Shown one piece after another: positions 4,809 to 59,225 of a stretch of DNA of 59,225 nucleotides (the stretch's first letter is position 1; each line of letters starts with the position of its first letter). Origin of the DNA: an uncultured Pseudomonadota bacterium (GTDB taxonomy: Bacteria; Desulfobacterota; Syntrophorhabdia; Syntrophorhabdales; Syntrophorhabdaceae). Below the pieces are notes generated by a model. That model saw only the letters and a program-made list of their open reading frames with translations. It made no database searches and was not told the DNA's origin. A program made the translations under genes and the position numbers. The DNA is taken from assembly GCA_937862865.1 (NCBI GenBank), contig CALMFJ010000017.1, positions 1 through 59,225 of the forward strand, in the 5' to 3' direction.

Positions 4809-4819
4809 AGAAAACGGGC

Positions 4820-4935
4820 GACAGGCAATGGGCTATGGGCAATAGGAAAACCCCGTTACCCATCGTGTTTATCGGTTCCGATCACCCCTCAGCTATTACC
4901 CTGTATCCCCCATTGCCTATCGCCCATCGCCTGTC
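4820..4935. repeat. heptamer-periodic inverted repeat, family 1 (RGGCNAT units), element A
   Basis: Left arm 4820-4846 is GACAGGCAATGGGCTATGGGCAATAGG. The reverse complement of right arm 4909-4935 is GACAGGCGATGGGCGATAGGCAATGGG (23/27 identical). The 62-nt spacer itself contains degenerate units. Confidence 0.85.
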
Positions 4936-4993
4936 ACCTTGCTTCTTTCCATTTCCGGCCCTATATTTAATCAAATTATACGGGAGGTGCGTT

Positions 4994-6348: not shown

Positions 6349-7317
6349 ATCTTATTCGACGGGCCCTATGTCCTCAATACCGATCCGGCATTCGCCGCAA
6401 TATCGGGGATCAGTCTCTGGTACCACGGGCTTGCATATGCGATAGGGTTCGTCTTTATCTTTCTATGGCTGATCGTCCGGCGCGGATACATCGGGATATC
6501 CTCGTCACGGGCCCTCGATCTTTCGCTTATTCTAGCCGTCTTCAGTCTGCTGGGCGGACGCGCTTTTGACGTTTTTATCTATGAACGAAGCGTGTTCAAC
6601 GGCAAGTACCTGGAAATGGCATCGTTCTGGCACGGCGGGATGGCGATAACGGGGGTCGTGGCAGGGTTGATGGCGGGGGTCCTTCTGTTTTCCCTGCTCT
6701 ACAGGAAACAGTTCATTGCCATCGCCGACGAGGTTATCGTCCCGTTTTGCCTTCTGCTCCTCATGGTCCGGATCGGCAACCATCTGAACGGTGAACTGTA
6801 CGGGTCCGTCACCGGCGCGTGGTGGGGGGTCAGATACCCCGGCATTGAAGGGTTCAGGCATCCCGTAGCGCTGTACGAGGCGCTCAAGGGCCTCATCGTA
6901 TTCTTTATCCTTCTCGTCATTGCGGGGCGCGCCGAAAGCGGCCGGGGCAAGACAACGGGCCAGTTCTTCCTCTGGTCCGGGCTCGGGTCTTTTATTATCG
7001 ATTATTTCGGTGTATCATCCGGCCATCTTGCCTTGAACCCAGGGACGCGGCAATTCTTTTCTGTTCTTGTCGCCATCCTCGGCCTGCTGATCATCTTGCA
7101 CACAGCAAGAAAACCGAGAAAGAAATATTCCGATCTCAATACAATGCAATTTGCACCCATTTCTTTCAGAAAACGAAGGTCTATGGGAAGGGGGGCTGTA
7201 TTCCTGAAGATCGTGCTGTTTGCGGTCATTCTCGTCTTCTGCCTTACCCTCCCGGGCGCAAGGGCCCAACAGTCGCTCAAGGACCCCGCTTCACCGCCAT
7301 TCAATCAGGCAATCTGA
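6349..7317 (+). CDS. lgt: prolipoprotein diacylglyceryl transferase; start codon unresolved (frame open from 6298, first ATG/GTG/TTG only at 6592)
   Basis: Lgt motifs: DPAFAAISGISLWYHGLAYAIGF (N-terminal TM1, encoded upstream of 6592), WHGGMAI, RIGNHLNGELYG, HPVALYE. The start given here is a candidate ATC preceded by AGGGGGG with a 5-nt spacer. Confidence 0.75.
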   Translation: MLFDGPYVLNTDPAFAAISGISLWYHGLAYAIGFVFIFLWLIVRRGYIGISSSRALDLSLILAVFSLLGGRAFDVFIYERSVFNGKYLEMASFWHGGMAITGVVAGLMAGVLLFSLLYRKQFIAIADEVIVPFCLLLLMVRIGNHLNGELYGSVTGAWWGVRYPGIEGFRHPVALYEALKGLIVFFILLVIAGRAESGRGKTTGQFFLWSGLGSFIIDYFGVSSGHLALNPGTRQFFSVLVAILGLLIILHTARKPRKKYSDLNTMQFAPISFRKRRSMGRGAVFLKIVLFAVILVFCLTLPGARAQQSLKDPASPPFNQAI

Positions 7318-11570: not shown

Positions 11571-11834
11571 TTATTTTGCCTCTGCCGGCTTCTCCTCGGG
11601 AGGGGCTGCCTTTTTTGCTTTTTTCACCTTTTTGGCTTTTTTCGGCTTTTTTGCCTTTTTGGCTTTCTTTACCGGTTTTTCCTTCGGTGCGTCAACCTTT
11701 TCCGGCGGAGTGGCCGGGCCCGCGGGTGTCGCCGGGGTTGCAGGTGTCGCCTTTTTCTCGTCGGCGGCAAAGCCTGTCAATGTTAAGGAAAGACCGATCA
11801 CCAGTGCGAAAATAAAAACCAATGCCTTCTTCAT
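11571..11834 (-). CDS. small secreted low-complexity protein (signal peptide, PAT repeats, polylysine tail)
   Basis: RBS AAGGAGGTGA lies 6 nt upstream of the ATG. Signal peptide MKKALVFIFALVIGLSLTLTGFA; then TPATPATPAGPATP and KKAKKAKKPKKAKKVKKAKK. A terminator follows. Confidence 0.7.
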   Translation of the reverse strand: MKKALVFIFALVIGLSLTLTGFAADEKKATPATPATPAGPATPPEKVDAPKEKPVKKAKKAKKPKKAKKVKKAKKAAPPEEKPAEAK

Positions 11835-31727: not shown

Positions 31728-31730
31728 AGA

Positions 31731-31799
31731 ATGGGCAATGGGTAAGAGGCAATGGGCGATGGGTATTTTCCTGTAGCCTATAGCCCATTGCCTCTTACC
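31731..31799. repeat. heptamer-periodic inverted repeat, family 1, element B
   Basis: 31741-31765 is GGTAAGAGGCAATGGGCGATGGGTA. The reverse complement of 31774-31799 is GGTAAGAGGCAATGGGCTATAGGCTA. The first 17 nt are perfect and the loop is 8 nt. An extra ATGGGCA unit lies at 31731. Confidence 0.88.
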
Positions 31800-34050: not shown

Positions 34051-34228
34051 TATATCTCCCTCCCTATTCCAGGTTATTTACAACAATTTAACGCAATGCT
34101 GGCAGCGGCTTCAGATCAAAGATGGTGCCGAGGCGTCAATGAGGAGCCGACGCAGACGTACGTCCGTACGTCGAGGAGCGCGACGAGGCGGACAACGAAG
34201 GCAACGCTTTGATATGGAGCCGGAGCTC
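34051..34228 (-). promoter_or_regulatory. structured 178-nt metK-ahcY intergenic leader (function unknown)
   Basis: A 7-bp long-range helix (34115-34121 with 34207-34213) encloses about 85 nt with at least two hairpins: GACGTAC-N4-GTACGTC near 34155-34172 and GCGTC-N11-GACGC. A GGAGC-N4-GCTCC hairpin lies directly after the metK stop. Confidence 0.3.
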
Positions 34229-43951: not shown

Positions 43952-43952
43952 A

Positions 43953-44022
43953 ATGGGCTATAGGCTATGGGCTACAGGCTATGGGGTTTCCTCTTGCCCA
44001 TCGCCTGTAGCCCATAGCCTGT
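43953..44022. repeat. heptamer-periodic inverted repeat, family 1, element C
   Basis: 43962-43985 is AGGCTATGGGCTACAGGCTATGGG. The reverse complement of 43997-44020 is AGGCTATGGGCTACAGGCGATGGG (23/24). The loop is 11 nt. Confidence 0.9.
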
Positions 44023-49932: not shown

Positions 49933-50070
49933 GACCGCCCCGCCCGGCGTTAGAAACTGCCCGCTTTTCCCGCCGATTGATTTATTCGGTACCCATATTA
50001 TGTTGAAAATTACCACATTAGCGCGGACACAATCAACCGAAAACCAAGCAAGAATCATTCCAAAACCCGG

Positions 50071-50180
50071 GGCGATGGGCTATAGGCGATGGGCTATGGG
50101 AAAACCAGGCTTTGGAGCGACAGAAAAGCGATGAGCAATAAGATTTTTCACCTATAGCCTATTGCCCATCGCCTATTGCC
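50071..50180. repeat. heptamer-periodic inverted repeat, family 1, element D
   Basis: 50071-50100 is GGCGATGGGCTATAGGCGATGGGCTATGGG. The reverse complement of 50151-50180 is GGCAATAGGCGATGGGCAATAGGCTATAGG: 23/30 in register, 20/23 when slipped by one 7-nt unit. The spacer is 50 nt. Confidence 0.88.
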
Positions 50181-50185
50181 TGATC

Positions 50186-50668
50186 TTATAATTTATACCC
50201 GAATTTGCGCAGCATCTCCTTGCGCGCCTTCTTATCCTCGTCCTTTTCTATCCCGGCCGGCCTTGAGCCGTCAATGACGCCCATGATGCCCCGCCCCTGC
50301 TCTGTTTCGGCCACGACGATCTCGACGGGGTTTGCGGTTGCGCAGAATACCCGGCATACCTCCTGGCAGTCCTTCACGGCATTGAGGGCGTTGATGGGAA
50401 AACCGTCGCGCATGAATATGACGAATGTGTGCCCGCACGCGAGATTGAAAGAGGTATCGGCGGCAAGCTTCGCGAGCGTCTCGTCGTTGCCCTCGTAGCG
50501 GGTCAGGCACGGGCCGCTCGCCTCGGAAAAAGCGACCCCGAACTTGATCGACGGGGCGGACCCGACGAGGGCCTCGTACAGATCCTCCACGGTCTTTATG
50601 AAATGCGACTGCCCGATAACCACATTGAGCCCTTCCGGGATATCGATTTTTACGGTCTTAAGCTCCAT
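50186..50668 (-). CDS. adenosine-specific kinase family protein (Pfam family of that name; poorly characterised)
   Basis: 160 aa; GQSHFIKTVEDLYEAL, FNLACGHTFVIF and ATANPVEIVVAETEQGRGIMGVIDG match my recollection of this archaeal/bacterial family. Confidence 0.65.
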   Translation of the reverse strand: MELKTVKIDIPEGLNVVIGQSHFIKTVEDLYEALVGSAPSIKFGVAFSEASGPCLTRYEGNDETLAKLAADTSFNLACGHTFVIFMRDGFPINALNAVKDCQEVCRVFCATANPVEIVVAETEQGRGIMGVIDGSRPAGIEKDEDKKARKEMLRKFGYKL

Positions 50669-50688
50669 GACGCCTCCTTGCGGGGTAT

Positions 50689-51654
50689 TTATCCGGTACT
50701 TTCTTCAAAGGGCCTTTCTTTCCCGAAATCCGGCACGAAAAGCGGTGCGCTTTCGAGTTCCTGGACAAAAACGTTCTCGAACCCGTTGTCTACGAGATAT
50801 GCAATGACGCTGTCATACTCGTCCGGCCTGATCCTCCTTGCCAGGACCGGGTAGTCCCCGGCACGATGGAGCGGCAGATATTGCGACATGAGGCCGATCC
50901 ACGTCGATCTTCCCAGGCCCTCCCCGATCCAGTCAATGACCTGCCGAGACCCGGCAAGCCCTCCCGGCAGGACCAGGTGGCGCACGATAATGCCCCTTTG
51001 TGCAATACCATCTTCGACGACCAGGTCCCCGACCTGCCGCTTCATCTCCAGGATGGCAGACTTCGCCGCGTCCGGGTAGGGCGCGCCATCCGATGCATGC
51101 GACAGTTTCGCGGCAATGAGACCGCTTGAGTACTTGAAGTCCGGAAGATAAATATCGATAAGGCCTTCGAGGGATTCAAGCGCCTCAACGTCATCGTAGG
51201 CGTTCGTATTATAAACAAAAGGCAGGCCGAGGCCCCTGCGCTTTGCCTGACTGATGGCGTCCGCCAGAAAGGGGGTATACGGCGTGGGGCTGACGAGATT
51301 GATGTTGTGGCATCTCATTTCCTTCAGGGCAAAAAATATCCGGACCAACCCGTCGACATCCACAGGCCTGCCCTCGCCGTCGTGGCTTATCTGATAGTTC
51401 TGGCAAAAAACGCAGCGGAGGTTGCAGTGAGAGAAGAATATGTTCCCCGATCCGTGATCCCCCGTTATGGGAGGTTCCTCACCGAAATGCGGGCCGTAAT
51501 GGGCGATCATCATCTCGCGCCCGGCGCCGCAGAACCCTTTTTTGCCGCTTAAGCGATCGGCCCCGCACTTCCGGGGGCATATCCGGCAGTGTGACAGCCG
51601 GGAGATACCTTTATTCACAGGCAATAGTATAGGATGAAAACAGGCGATATACAA
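50689..51654 (-). CDS. radical SAM protein, PflX-like (pyruvate formate-lyase activase homolog)
   Basis: CRICPRKCG, HFGEEPPITG and the radical SAM cluster CNLRCVFCQN. The start is uncertain: TTG 51654 lies inside repeat element E; GTG 51618 is the alternative. Confidence 0.8.
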   Translation of the reverse strand: MYIACFHPILLPVNKGISRLSHCRICPRKCGADRLSGKKGFCGAGREMMIAHYGPHFGEEPPITGDHGSGNIFFSHCNLRCVFCQNYQISHDGEGRPVDVDGLVRIFFALKEMRCHNINLVSPTPYTPFLADAISQAKRRGLGLPFVYNTNAYDDVEALESLEGLIDIYLPDFKYSSGLIAAKLSHASDGAPYPDAAKSAILEMKRQVGDLVVEDGIAQRGIIVRHLVLPGGLAGSRQVIDWIGEGLGRSTWIGLMSQYLPLHRAGDYPVLARRIRPDEYDSVIAYLVDNGFENVFVQELESAPLFVPDFGKERPFEESTG

Positions 51655-51790
51655 TAGGCGATCGGCGATAGGAAGATCAAGTTCCGGTAAGGTGCGGCGG
51701 GGTAATGGGCAACAGGTTATGGGTGATGGGAAAAGCTTTTTCCCTGCAGCCCGTTGCCCGTTGCCTATCGCCTGGCATCTATTCCTACCT
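51641..51790. repeat. heptamer-periodic repeat, family 1, element E (degenerate; two G-rich blocks plus one C-rich block)
   Basis: Block 51641-51673 reads CAGGCGA TATACAA TAGGCGA TCGGCGA TAGG. Block 51699-51730 reads GGGTAAT GGGCAAC AGGTTAT GGGTGAT GGG. Block 51742-51788 reads CCCTGCA GCCCGTT GCCCGTT GCCTATC GCCTGGC. Mostly only the GGG/CCC core of each unit is retained. Confidence 0.7.
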
Positions 51791-52253
51791 TTACCGTTTT
51801 CGCATCGAGTATTTTCATTATATCGTGCGGGTCCATCGCCAGGAGGTAGCCGCGCCGTCCGCCGTTTATGTATATCTTCGGCAGATCGAGGACCGTTTCC
51901 TCCATGTACACGGGCATCGCCCTGCGCGTGCCGAAGGGGGATGTTCCGCCTATCATGTAGCCGGAGTGTTTCCGGGGATTTGCCGAGGGGCCGATCTTTT
52001 TCACGCCCAGGATGCGGGCCAGCTCTTTCGTCGACACCTCTTTGTCGCCGTGCATGAGAACGATGACGGGCCGGCCGGTTTCATCCTCCATGACGAGCGT
52101 CTTTATGACCATATGCTCGTCGACACGGTACTGCTTTGCAAATGTCGACGTACCGCCGCGCTCCACGTACTGATACGGATGTTCCGCGAACTCGACCTCT
52201 CTGTCCCTGAGGAACCTGACCGCCGCCGTAACGTGTGCCTTCTCTTTCGCCAT
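51765..52253 (-). CDS. ybaK: YbaK/EbsC-family aminoacyl-tRNA deacylase
   Basis: 162 aa; YbaK-type fold motifs (VKTLVMEDE, GGTSPFG). The last codons overlap repeat element E. Confidence 0.8.
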   Translation of the reverse strand: MAKEKAHVTAAVRFLRDREVEFAEHPYQYVERGGTSTFAKQYRVDEHMVIKTLVMEDETGRPVIVLMHGDKEVSTKELARILGVKKIGPSANPRKHSGYMIGGTSPFGTRRAMPVYMEETVLDLPKIYINGGRRGYLLAMDPHDIMKILDAKTVKVGIDARR

Positions 52254-52260
52254 TGCAGGT

Positions 52261-52360
52261 CGTTCTACGTTCCGCGTTCTACGTTCAACGTTAAAGACGA
52301 AACACCATTTCAGTGGTTTTTTGTTTCTAACGCAGAACGCGGAACGTAGAACGCGGAACG
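52261..52360. repeat. heptamer-periodic inverted repeat, family 2 (CGTTCYR units), element F
   Basis: 52261-52293 reads CGTTCTA CGTTCCG CGTTCTA CGTTCAA CGTTA. The reverse complement of 52328-52360 reads CGTTCCG CGTTCTA CGTTCCG CGTTCTG CGTTA. Identity is 25/33 in register, with a 19-nt perfect match when slipped by 7. Confidence 0.9.
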
Positions 52361-55689: not shown

Positions 55690-55763
55690 ATTTATACCTT
55701 CTAAGAGTATCGGTTTTGCTCACGGGATTCTAACCCGTACGGGCCGCGCATGCAAATCTTTTT

Positions 55764-55824
55764 GAGTAAGCAGCGGGCGGCGAGCGGTCTCTTGCTCTTC
55801 ACTGTTTACTGCTTACCGTTCACT
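55764..55824. repeat. heptamer-periodic inverted repeat, family 3 (GYRRRCR units), element H
   Basis: GTAAGCAG (55766-55773) pairs with CTGCTTAC (55809-55816). The next 14 positions pair only via G:T. The 7-nt loop is TCTCTTG. The minus strand reads GTGAACG GTAAGCA GTAAACA GTGAAGA GCAAGAG. Confidence 0.65.
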
Positions 55825-58951: not shown

Positions 58952-58978
58952 CCCCGCTTCGCAGGAGGCGGGGTTTTT
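58952..58978 (+). terminator. intrinsic terminator after dctM
   Basis: CCCCGCTTC-GCAG-GAGGCGGGG (9-bp stem including one G:T) followed by TTTTT. Confidence 0.8.
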
Positions 58979-59225
58979 CGTTCTACGTTCTACGTTCTAC
59001 GTCTAATCATTCCGATCTTGCCGGACAATCAGCCCCCTTCGATTGAGTCCTTGCGCCATTCTGCTTCGCGCGTCATCGCCAGCCAGGTTCCTCTTTTCTC
59101 TGGGTACCCGGGGCCCGAGGCTTTGTTTGATGGCTTTTGAAAGTTAATATTCTCGGAATACAGGAAAGAGGGGCCCTGCATGAAAGGAATACTTACATCG
59201 GGATTGTTAACGTAGAACGCGGAAC
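58979..59225. repeat. heptamer-periodic repeat, family 2, element G (right arm cut by window end)
   Basis: 58979-59006 reads CGTTCTA CGTTCTA CGTTCTA CGTCTAA. At 59208-59225, TAACGTAGAACGCGGAAC is the inverted partner and matches the right arm of element F at 17/18. The arms are separated by about 200 nt. Confidence 0.8.

Follow-up and report, generated by a model that had tools for sequence, protein, structure and literature searches.

In two Xanthomonas genomes, Rehm et al. (2015) found 186 and 183 arrays of GGGAATC-type heptamers, with 70-75 convergent inverted array pairs per genome (PMC4692102). These arrays consist mostly of four units, are about 90% intergenic at a mean distance of 28 nucleotides (nt) from the upstream open reading frame (ORF), and are rare between divergent genes; they are kept between the same genes with variation in sequence and length, most of the heptamer repeats are transcribed, GGGAATC repeats adopt quadruplex folds in vitro, and no role could be identified for them (PMC4692102). 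Heptamer arrays of the units GGGGAYT, TTTTGAA and GACYAAT are described from Nostoc (PMC4692102; bioRxiv 10.1101/2022.06.06.494920), and MacGregor (2015) described TAACTGA heptamer sets common to Beggiatoaceae, Cyanobacteria and Bacteroidetes, which end just before start codons that have no canonical ribosome-binding site (PMC4679880). As cited in these papers, Mrazek (2007) identified heptamers as the commonest long simple-sequence repeat, took the 7-nt length to reflect the polymerase footprint during slippage, and ascribed long repeats with 5-11-nt units to a general expansion tendency (PMC4679880, PMC4692102). Here we analyze long hairpins of 7-base repeats that occupy many of the spacers of a sewage bacterium related to Syntrophorhabdus, using a stretch of 59,225 nt from contig CALMFJ010000017.1, hereafter the window, together with its relatives and other genomes. 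The names that its YbaK homologues carry place the organism near Syntrophorhabdaceae. An earlier note on this DNA had held that the architecture could not be placed in a described class, which the inverted GGGAATC pairs of Xanthomonas show to be wrong (PMC4692102): the elements belong to a described but unexplained kind, the heptanucleotide simple-sequence repeats. A later paper that explains heptamer repeats was not found.

Heptamer arrays and their inverted pairing in the window

A scan of the window for period-7 clusters, defined as 28-nt windows in which 16 or more of 21 positions match at lag 7, returned eight clusters; 30 dinucleotide shuffles averaged 0.07, and none had more than 1. Period-7 arrays in the window thus exceed their frequency in shuffled sequence about 100-fold. 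Lag 14 gave seven clusters, and each of the remaining lags from 3 to 15 gave zero to two. Tandem Repeats Finder (TRF) reported period-7 or period-14 arrays of 2.4-4.9 copies at all listed sites except element H (array positions 4824, 4905, 31730, 43956, 50070, 50151, 51749, 52261, 52329 and 58979), and an inverted-repeat finder paired the arrays at elements A, B, C, D, E, F and G through arms of 17-26 nt that are 73-96% complementary and 11-212 nt apart. The defining trait of paired heptamer simple-sequence repeats, arrays of the same unit close together on opposite strands, is therefore present in the window. This bears out the earlier description of tandem heptamers in inverted orientation at three junctions between 50071 and 52360, and likewise the proposal that the arms pair in several registers, as both B and F have a second register, shifted from the first by one unit. 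Pfam confirms the names given to the genes at these junctions (homoserine dehydrogenase, adenosine-specific kinase, radical SAM, YbaK/tRNA_edit and RecJ). The count of eight heptamer hairpins stands for seven, A to G, which are inverted array pairs; H is weak, with a 10-bp stem. Two of the three proposed unit families, RGGCNAT and CGTTCYR, are evident in the window and the third, read here as GTRARCR, is weaker there, though clear in relatives. The arrays are non-coding, as had been argued, because a 7-nt period does not amount to a whole number of codons and the genes on either side are complete, and CRISPR was rightly set aside, the units being contiguous and 7 nt long versus repeats of 24-48 nt with unique spacers.

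Element A (4812-4940) was located by TRF, the inverted-repeat finder and gene calls between the stop codon of an EpmA-like gene (4808, + strand) and the start of a rubrerythrin gene (4994). Its left array (4816-4843) reads GGGCGAC AGGCAAT GGGCTAT GGGCAAT AGG, and its right array (4905-4939), about 76 nt away, is made of YATNGCC units; the paired arms, 4816-4832 and 4909-4925, are 17 nt long and 94% complementary with a gap of 76 nt, and the predicted fold has -47.8 kcal/mol (z = -4.6). Two further elements fill their spacers between genes on the - strand. Element D (31730-31799) occupies the 77-nt spacer from a PfkB stop (31805) to an MscS start (31727), with arrays at 31730-31763 and 31777-31799 around a 13-nt loop, arms at 31741-31763 and 31777-31799 (23 nt, 91% complementary, gap 13 nt) and a predicted fold of -35.5 kcal/mol (z = -5.1). 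Element E (43952-44022) occupies the 76-nt spacer from the KpsF stop (44028) to the LptC start (43951), with arrays at 43952-43985 and 43997-44022 around an 11-nt loop; its arms, 43962-43985 and 43997-44020, are 96% complementary over 24 nt (gap 11 nt), and its fold is predicted at -45 kcal/mol (z = -7.2).

Element B (50070-50181, - strand) begins 4 nt past the adenosine-kinase stop (50186) and is followed by a leader of about 130 nt upstream of hom. Its arrays, 50070-50100 and 50151-50181, are 57 nt apart, and the arms 50071-50093 and 50151-50173, which pair in two registers, are 23 nt long and 87% complementary (gap 57 nt; z = -2.4). The leader itself (49933-50065), directly past B, is near-identical in five lineages (TTTGGAATGATTCTTGCTTGGTTT...GTGGTAATTTTCAACAT), with counterparts in the relatives L133 (13140-13272), L134 and L258, and its conservation is far above that of element B. 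It had no Rfam match and is probably a promoter with a leader, or a regulatory RNA. Element C (51618-51776) is compound and lies between the YbaK stop (51765) and a radical-SAM start (51624, gene call): an outer left array (51640-51672) accompanies an inner hairpin whose left array (51700-51730) reads GGTAATG GGCAACA GGTTATG GGTGATG GG and whose right array spans 51742-51774. The arms paired by the inverted-repeat finder, 51641-51666 and 51749-51774, are 26 nt long and 73% complementary with a gap of 82 nt, and the predicted fold has -47.4 kcal/mol (z = -3.1).

Element F (52261-52360), of the CGTTCYR family, fills the 109-nt spacer from the RecJ stop (52363) to the YbaK start (52253), again on the - strand, with arrays at 52261-52292 and 52329-52360, 43 nt apart. 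Its arms pair at 52261-52285 with 52329-52353 (25 nt, 96% complementary, gap 43 nt) and, shifted by 7 nt, at 52268-52292 with 52336-52360 (25 nt, 92%, gap 43 nt); the predicted fold has -50.8 kcal/mol (z = -6.7). Element G (58979-59225), of the same family, lies between convergent genes. Its left array, (CGTTCTA)3.4 at 58979-59002, directly follows the dctM terminator, and its right arm starts at 59209 and runs past the window end (AACGTAG AACGCGG AACGTAG AACGCGG AAC); the arms pair at 58980-58996 and 59209-59225 (17 nt, 88% complementary), about 207-212 nt apart. In L001, a longer copy of the contig, the right arm is complete and a second flanking terminator is present. An 11-codon ORF within G was dismissed, as it is not conserved in L133. 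At this convergent COXG|DctM junction (window 58979-59225 with L001; L258 2826-3286; L132 2791-3265), inverted heptamer arrays stand just inside both terminators and enclose 200-330 nt of unrelated sequence, with CGTTCYR units in the window and GGTNATR units in L132 and L258.

Element H (55764-55822) is a degenerate array of five GTRARCR units, bordered by a GNAT stop (55825) on one side and by a promoter-like site upstream of pyrK on the other. With a period-7 score of 15/21, a predicted fold of -21.3 kcal/mol (z = -2.9) and a sole real stem of 10 bp, it is only partly confirmed and amounts to a weak, degenerate hairpin; its unit family is real, because the relatives L255 and L258 carry clear GTAARNA arrays. 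The promoter-like site just downstream of H (55727-55756, - strand) reads TTTGCA, 18 nt, TAGAAT, its core GGGTTAGAATCCC is kept in all relatives, and it is probably the pyrK promoter.

All eight elements lie between genes that are supported both by public gene calls and by Pfam domains. Of the 21 intergenic gaps of at least 60 nt, 8 are occupied by arrays, so the earlier statement that most of the larger gaps carry one was too strong. Every element except the convergent G stands between co-directional genes, and neither of the two divergent gaps is occupied; the elements lie in transcribed spacers. In the window the 5' arm begins 3-10 nt past the upstream stop codon (G instead follows a terminator), and across the window, L133, L255 and L258, by public gene calls, the distance is 0-10 nt at nearly every junction, the exception being one L258 site at 23 nt. 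Elements D, E and F span the entire spacer and reach to within 1-7 nt of start codons conserved among relatives. There is no visible Shine-Dalgarno sequence before the starts that these three elements abut; neighbouring genes have strong ones, such as the AAGGAGG before the adenosine-kinase gene.

RNA folding was done on the transcribed strand. This predicted folds of -35 to -51 kcal/mol for D, E and F (z = -5 to -7) and of -43 to -48 kcal/mol for A, B and C (z = -2.4 to -4.6), with RNA stems that span 17-28 bp. The Rfam search with these elements that the earlier note had suggested was negative: the sole match at the gathering threshold was a tRNA-Ser, with no family on the elements. Permissive thresholds gave only sub-threshold miRNA-precursor look-alikes on D and F, and a known RNA family was dismissed.

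Turnover among relatives and spread across phyla

Six independent metagenome assemblies contain the same 19 kb at 99.7-99.9% identity to the window, and none of their arrays shows an indel, which rules out an assembly artefact. Elements A, D and F are identical in all assemblies compared (three others for A, four for D and five for F). Single-nucleotide polymorphisms (SNPs) are denser in the elements than in other intergenic DNA (12/757 versus 2/734, p = 0.013), and H carries five SNPs among strains. Element B occurs as two strain haplotypes that differ at three clustered sites in a single arm; in the window haplotype the arm concerned consists of a perfect 14-nt duplication, consistent with realignment in the unit register. 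A copy of F in contig L257 (1086-1196) is identical over 109 nt, though the YbaK encoded there is only 90% identical to that of the window and the downstream gene is different; either recombination or a chimeric contig would account for it.

We compared the shared junctions with those of syntenic relatives (L132/L258, L133, L255 and L134), whose YbaK proteins are 80-88% identical to that of the window. At kpsF|lptC, the window carries GGCNATR arrays, L132/L258 carry GGTNATR on both arms, and L133 carries GGCNATR with a different copy number and loop; in L134 element E is absent and the spacer is 11 nt long with an AGGA Shine-Dalgarno sequence, and L255 is outside coverage. At recJ|ybaK, the units are CGTTCYR in the window, GTAARNA in L132/L258 and L255 and GTTCAAA in L133, and L134 has a plain hairpin. 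At GNAT|pyrK, where the window has the degenerate H, there is no clear array in L132/L258 and none in L134, and L255 is again outside coverage; L133 carries 14 perfect GCCGTTA units (6407-6510), all direct, which start within the GNAT stop codon and have no inverted partner. Orthologues of E are present in L132, L133 and L258, and the right arm of C is conserved in the same three. Copy number at the same junction varies between species, and at kpsF|lptC a predicted hairpin of -41 to -45 kcal/mol is kept in the window, L132 and L133 despite differing units, copy number and loop. Unit dialects are shared across loci: the window uses GGCNATR, and L132 and L258 have GGTNATR units at several junctions, on both arms. 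Taken together, the elements are stable over short times and turn over between species, with few unit families per genome and a dialect shared across loci. The change from GGC to GGT on both arms was dismissed as proof of compensatory selection, because a mutation bias tied to the motif would affect both inverted copies alike and so mimic covariation.

A scan for exact (GGCNATR)4 with one genome per species returned at least 117 loci. Among the matches listed, to which the counts in this and the next paragraph also refer, were Chitinophagaceae, Saprospiraceae and other Bacteroidota, many Cyanobacteria, Phycisphaerales, Casimicrobiaceae, Geobacteraceae, Smithellaceae, Syntrophorhabdaceae, Nitrospirota, Thermodesulfovibrionales, Gemmatimonadota, Acidobacteriota and Verrucomicrobiota; the GGCNATR unit is common to Bacteroidota, Cyanobacteria, Planctomycetota, Nitrospirota, Desulfobacterota, Gemmatimonadota and Burkholderiales. 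In the 811 kb of other genomes thus sampled, there were 299 period-7 arrays versus 3-41 for periods 5, 6 and 8-11, and the (GGCNATR)4 loci held many further heptamer units.

When an inverted partner was sought within 400 nt, 40 of 124 GGCNATR arrays had one in the order 5'-(GGCNATR)n...(YATNGCC)n-3' and just two had the opposite order (40:2; p = 4e-10); a reverse-only control gave 1 of 124. This order reads the same on either strand and therefore cannot come from the direction of transcription or replication. A metagenome scan for (CGTTCYR)4 returned at least 120 loci, and here 50 of 129 arrays were paired in mixed order (23:27), so the polarity holds for GGCNATR and is dismissed as a universal rule. 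One CGTTCCG-type element sets a fixed irregular arm, AACGCGGAACGCGGAAGTCGGAACGCGGAACAG, opposite a perfect (CGTTCCG)4 arm at six or more unrelated loci, usually right past a stop codon (metagenome contigs L143, L145, L177, L179, L223 and L248), and looks more like a dispersed REP-type repeat (REP, repetitive extragenic palindrome) than like a product of local slippage. Clustering of the ORFs within 1.5 kb of the arrays (237 loci listed) led us to dismiss a recurrent neighbouring protein family, as it returned just common families such as ABC transporters and histidine kinases; the top cluster was an ORF antisense to dnaK (Pfam NAD-GH) beside CGTTCYR arrays at 14 metagenome loci (L135, L144, L149, L159, L164 and others), probably one orthologous site in related organisms.

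Two other repeats in the window lie apart from the elements. In the metK|ahcY spacer (34051-34228) there is a long imperfect palindrome, ATCAAAG...CTTTGAT, centred on ACGTACGGACGTACGT. A 68-nt length difference there in L129 is not a presence/absence polymorphism, as it equals a scaffold gap of Ns at the palindrome, and an S-adenosylhomocysteine (SAH) riboswitch, which one might expect upstream of ahcY, was not found there by Rfam. Repeats of period 8, 18 and 27 (CCTTTTTTGCTTTTTTCA) at 11609-11684 fall within a small - strand ORF (11571-11834) and probably encode a lysine-rich repeat of the protein, with no relation to the heptamer elements.

Origin and function of the palindromes

The reading that we favour, and to which we give an even chance, is that these are heptanucleotide-repeat palindromes which grew by 7-nt slippage and now serve as transcribed, REP-like stem-loops at intercistronic positions and mRNA 3' ends. 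Each element consists of a 3-5-unit array of a 7-nt repeat and an inverted copy 10-210 nt away. The arrays would grow and become homogenized as the strands slip by 7 or 14 nt at a time; the second arm may derive from inverted duplication or template switching, and some cross-locus process would maintain few unit families per genome. By analogy with REP elements, the RNA stem-loop could form a barrier to 3' exonucleases, a double-stranded target of RNase III, or both, the latter being proposed because there are stems of at least 22 bp. As the element abuts a stop codon and sometimes the next start, the stem-loop could in addition influence how the neighbouring cistrons are terminated and translated. 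The period-7 excess, inverted pairing above chance, the position at stop codons, the stem z-scores and the 14-nt superperiod are consistent with slippage-grown, transcribed hairpins, as are the hairpin kept at kpsF|lptC, the genome-specific dialects and the parallel in Xanthomonas.

A number of observations weigh against this account. Among 4-6 assemblies at 99.7% identity, no array was seen to vary in its number of units. A terminator scan called the dctM terminator (58956-58974) and none of the elements, and no U-tract follows the stems; intrinsic termination was dismissed on this negative scan and because D, E and F lie inside operons and reach start codons. Among transition mismatches in the stems of the window elements, L132, L133 and L114, read on the mRNA strand, A.C outnumbers G.U by 24 to 10, and the antisense strand folds more stably in all seven window elements and in 12 of 14 overall, a bias absent from other spacers and from coding segments. 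This mismatch pattern is the opposite of that predicted from selection for a stable mRNA stem and argues against strong selection on it; selection as judged from G.U versus A.C was thus dismissed, its outcome being reversed. The A.C excess on the mRNA strand is also contrary to the usual deamination biases. In L133 each arm has been homogenized separately, with one mismatch per unit. The condition that the earlier note had proposed for refutation, independent drift of the two arms with no compensatory change, accordingly points both ways: the arms stay heptameric and pairable across species, but they are homogenized separately in L133, and A.C mismatches are in surplus. L134 has no period-7 array in 20 kb of synteny, with an 11-nt spacer or plain hairpins instead, and given L134 the elements are dispensable. 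Finally, local slippage alone fails to explain the 40:2 polarity of GGCNATR or the shared dialects, and a mobile or trans-templated origin has to be considered for that reason.

Possible, though on the unlikely side in our view, is that the arrays are neutral or selfish slippage junk, with no role of its own, that grows where it does no harm, past stop codons and away from promoters, with the hairpin a side effect of inverted duplication. The empty sister lineage L134 with the same gene order, the freedom with which loop, copy number and unit family vary at a single junction from one species to another, the raised SNP density, the lack of a G.U bias among mRNA mismatches and the general expansion tendency of Mrazek (2007), as cited in PMC4679880 and PMC4692102, are all readily accommodated by such growth. 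It accounts poorly for the pairing of 30-40% of the arrays and the 40:2 polarity among the matches listed, which demand a mechanism, and for the replacement of the Shine-Dalgarno region of essential genes (lptC and ybaK) that were not lost. Hairpin capacity at kpsF|lptC has moreover been retained in three species, and the ordinary hairpins of L134 at two shared junctions suggest that a hairpin is wanted there.

We find it doubtful that the palindromes are non-autonomous mobile elements of a REP/REPIN-like kind or resembling MITEs (miniature inverted-repeat transposable elements), with a trans-acting enzyme that would bind the terminal heptamer arrays and spread them. Such spreading would explain why each genome has few unit families, each at many loci, why dialects (GGC versus GGT) are lineage-specific on both arms and across loci, why different families occupy the same junction in sister lineages in the manner of replacement rather than drift, why GGCNATR polarity is fixed, and why the element with the AACGCGGAACGCGGAAGTCGGAACGCGGAACAG arm stands at six or more unrelated loci. 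It sits badly with loops that are unrelated between copies (11-212 nt) and with the lack of visible target-site duplication at the boundaries, on which grounds MITEs were set aside, and also with unit order and number that differ in every window copy and with the mixed CGTTCYR polarity (23:27 among the matches listed). No transposase and no gene of the REP-associated tyrosine transposase (RAYT, Y1) type occurs among the called genes in about 67 kb of the genome, and neither a RAYT gene nor any other protein family recurs beside the arrays at the 237 loci listed.

A more speculative proposal, to which we assign a small chance, is that the palindromes are the product of an unrecognized trans-acting system, present in many phyla, that writes or spreads unit arrays, or else that they couple the translation of adjacent cistrons across the base of the hairpin. 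The first part is suggested by the genome-specific dialects across loci, the replacement of families, the absence from a sister lineage and the occurrence of the same unit in many phyla. Candidates would be a REP-like element with an unknown mobilizing enzyme or templated repeat addition at both 3' ends of a break, the latter of which would yield the fixed 5'-(GGCNATR)n...(YATNGCC)n-3' polarity. DNA-level signals, whether as a G-quadruplex, as an i-motif or as tandem sites to which a DNA-binding protein or regulator attaches, are very improbable: RGGCNAT with R = G does give a G3 tract every 7 nt like the Xanthomonas GGGAATC (PMC4692102), and heptamer direct repeats bind regulators in other systems, but CGTTCYR and GTRARCR have no G tracts, many RGGCNAT units are AGG, and the elements shun divergent, promoter-bearing spacers, sit past stop codons and keep no conserved spacing to promoters.

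If the palindromes of our favoured reading are functional, or if they are actively spread, they would represent a widespread class of intergenic element comparable to REPs; if neither, they would be a clean example of how mutational processes shape bacterial spacers. Several stand between a stop and a start codon without a Shine-Dalgarno sequence, ahead of essential genes. In free-living bacteria, no long simple repeats are commoner than heptamer arrays. The genus-level set, with its filled junctions, empty junctions and junctions filled by another family, and with the shift in dialect from GGC to GGT, offers a compact comparative system in which to address why the unit is 7 nt, why inverted pairs are so frequent and what the arrays do.

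Comparison with described repeat classes

The arrays described here resemble the GGGAATC repeats of Xanthomonas in having about four tandem 7-nt units with opposite-strand arrays able to form a stem-loop, in lying between genes, nearer the upstream ORF and rarely between divergent genes, and in being kept between the same genes in relatives with variation in length and sequence. They differ in their units (RGGCNAT, CGTTCYR and GTRARCR), in the presence of several families in one genome, in phylum (Desulfobacterota-like here versus Gammaproteobacteria) and in their distance from the stop codon (0-10 nt versus a mean of 28 nt). The quadruplex trait of the Xanthomonas GGGNATC unit does not extend to them, as RGGCNAT has a G3 tract only if R = G and the two other units, with none, cannot form quadruplexes. 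With long simple-sequence repeats of 5-11-nt units they share a 7-nt head-to-tail iteration in excess and a mostly non-coding site.

The earlier note had placed the elements in the neighbourhood of cyanobacterial short tandemly repeated repetitive (STRR) sequences and REPs, an appropriate choice. The cyanobacterial STRRs, reportedly described by Mazel in 1990, and other heptamers of that phylum are likewise tandem and intergenic, occur in several families per genome and often lie near start codons, and GGCNATR arrays are also found in Nostoc, Scytonema, Tolypothrix and Planktothrix. The units here differ from the CCCCAGT type that characterizes the STRRs of heterocystous cyanobacteria, and few arrays are paired in Nostoc, whereas nearly all are paired here. 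Like REPs, bacterial interspersed mosaic elements (BIMEs) and REPINs, the elements are abundant intergenic palindromes past stop codons, in transcribed spacers, with genome-specific sequence. REP elements are known stabilizers of mRNA 3' ends, and a REP within about 15 nt of a stop codon reportedly stalls ribosomes (Liang, Rudd and Deutscher, 2015). A REP arm is a single imperfect palindrome of 20-40 nt with a conserved 5' GTAG/GGAG tetranucleotide and an accompanying RAYT gene; the arms here are tandem heptamers with variable unit order and not themselves palindromes, and they have no constant flanking tetranucleotide, so membership in the REP/BIME/REPIN group was rejected.

The TAACTGA sets offer a further likeness, with one heptamer across unrelated phyla, sets of 2-6 units and ends a few nt before starts that have no canonical ribosome-binding site. 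Those sets, in contrast, are nearly all direct (1 inverted set in 170), and the proposal made for them was of single-stranded sites bound by protein, not of hairpins (PMC4679880). Against this background, what is new here is that GGCNATR is spread over many phyla and has a fixed polarity, that the arrays lie so close to stop codons, that they take the place of Shine-Dalgarno sequences and that they turn over at the level of the genus.

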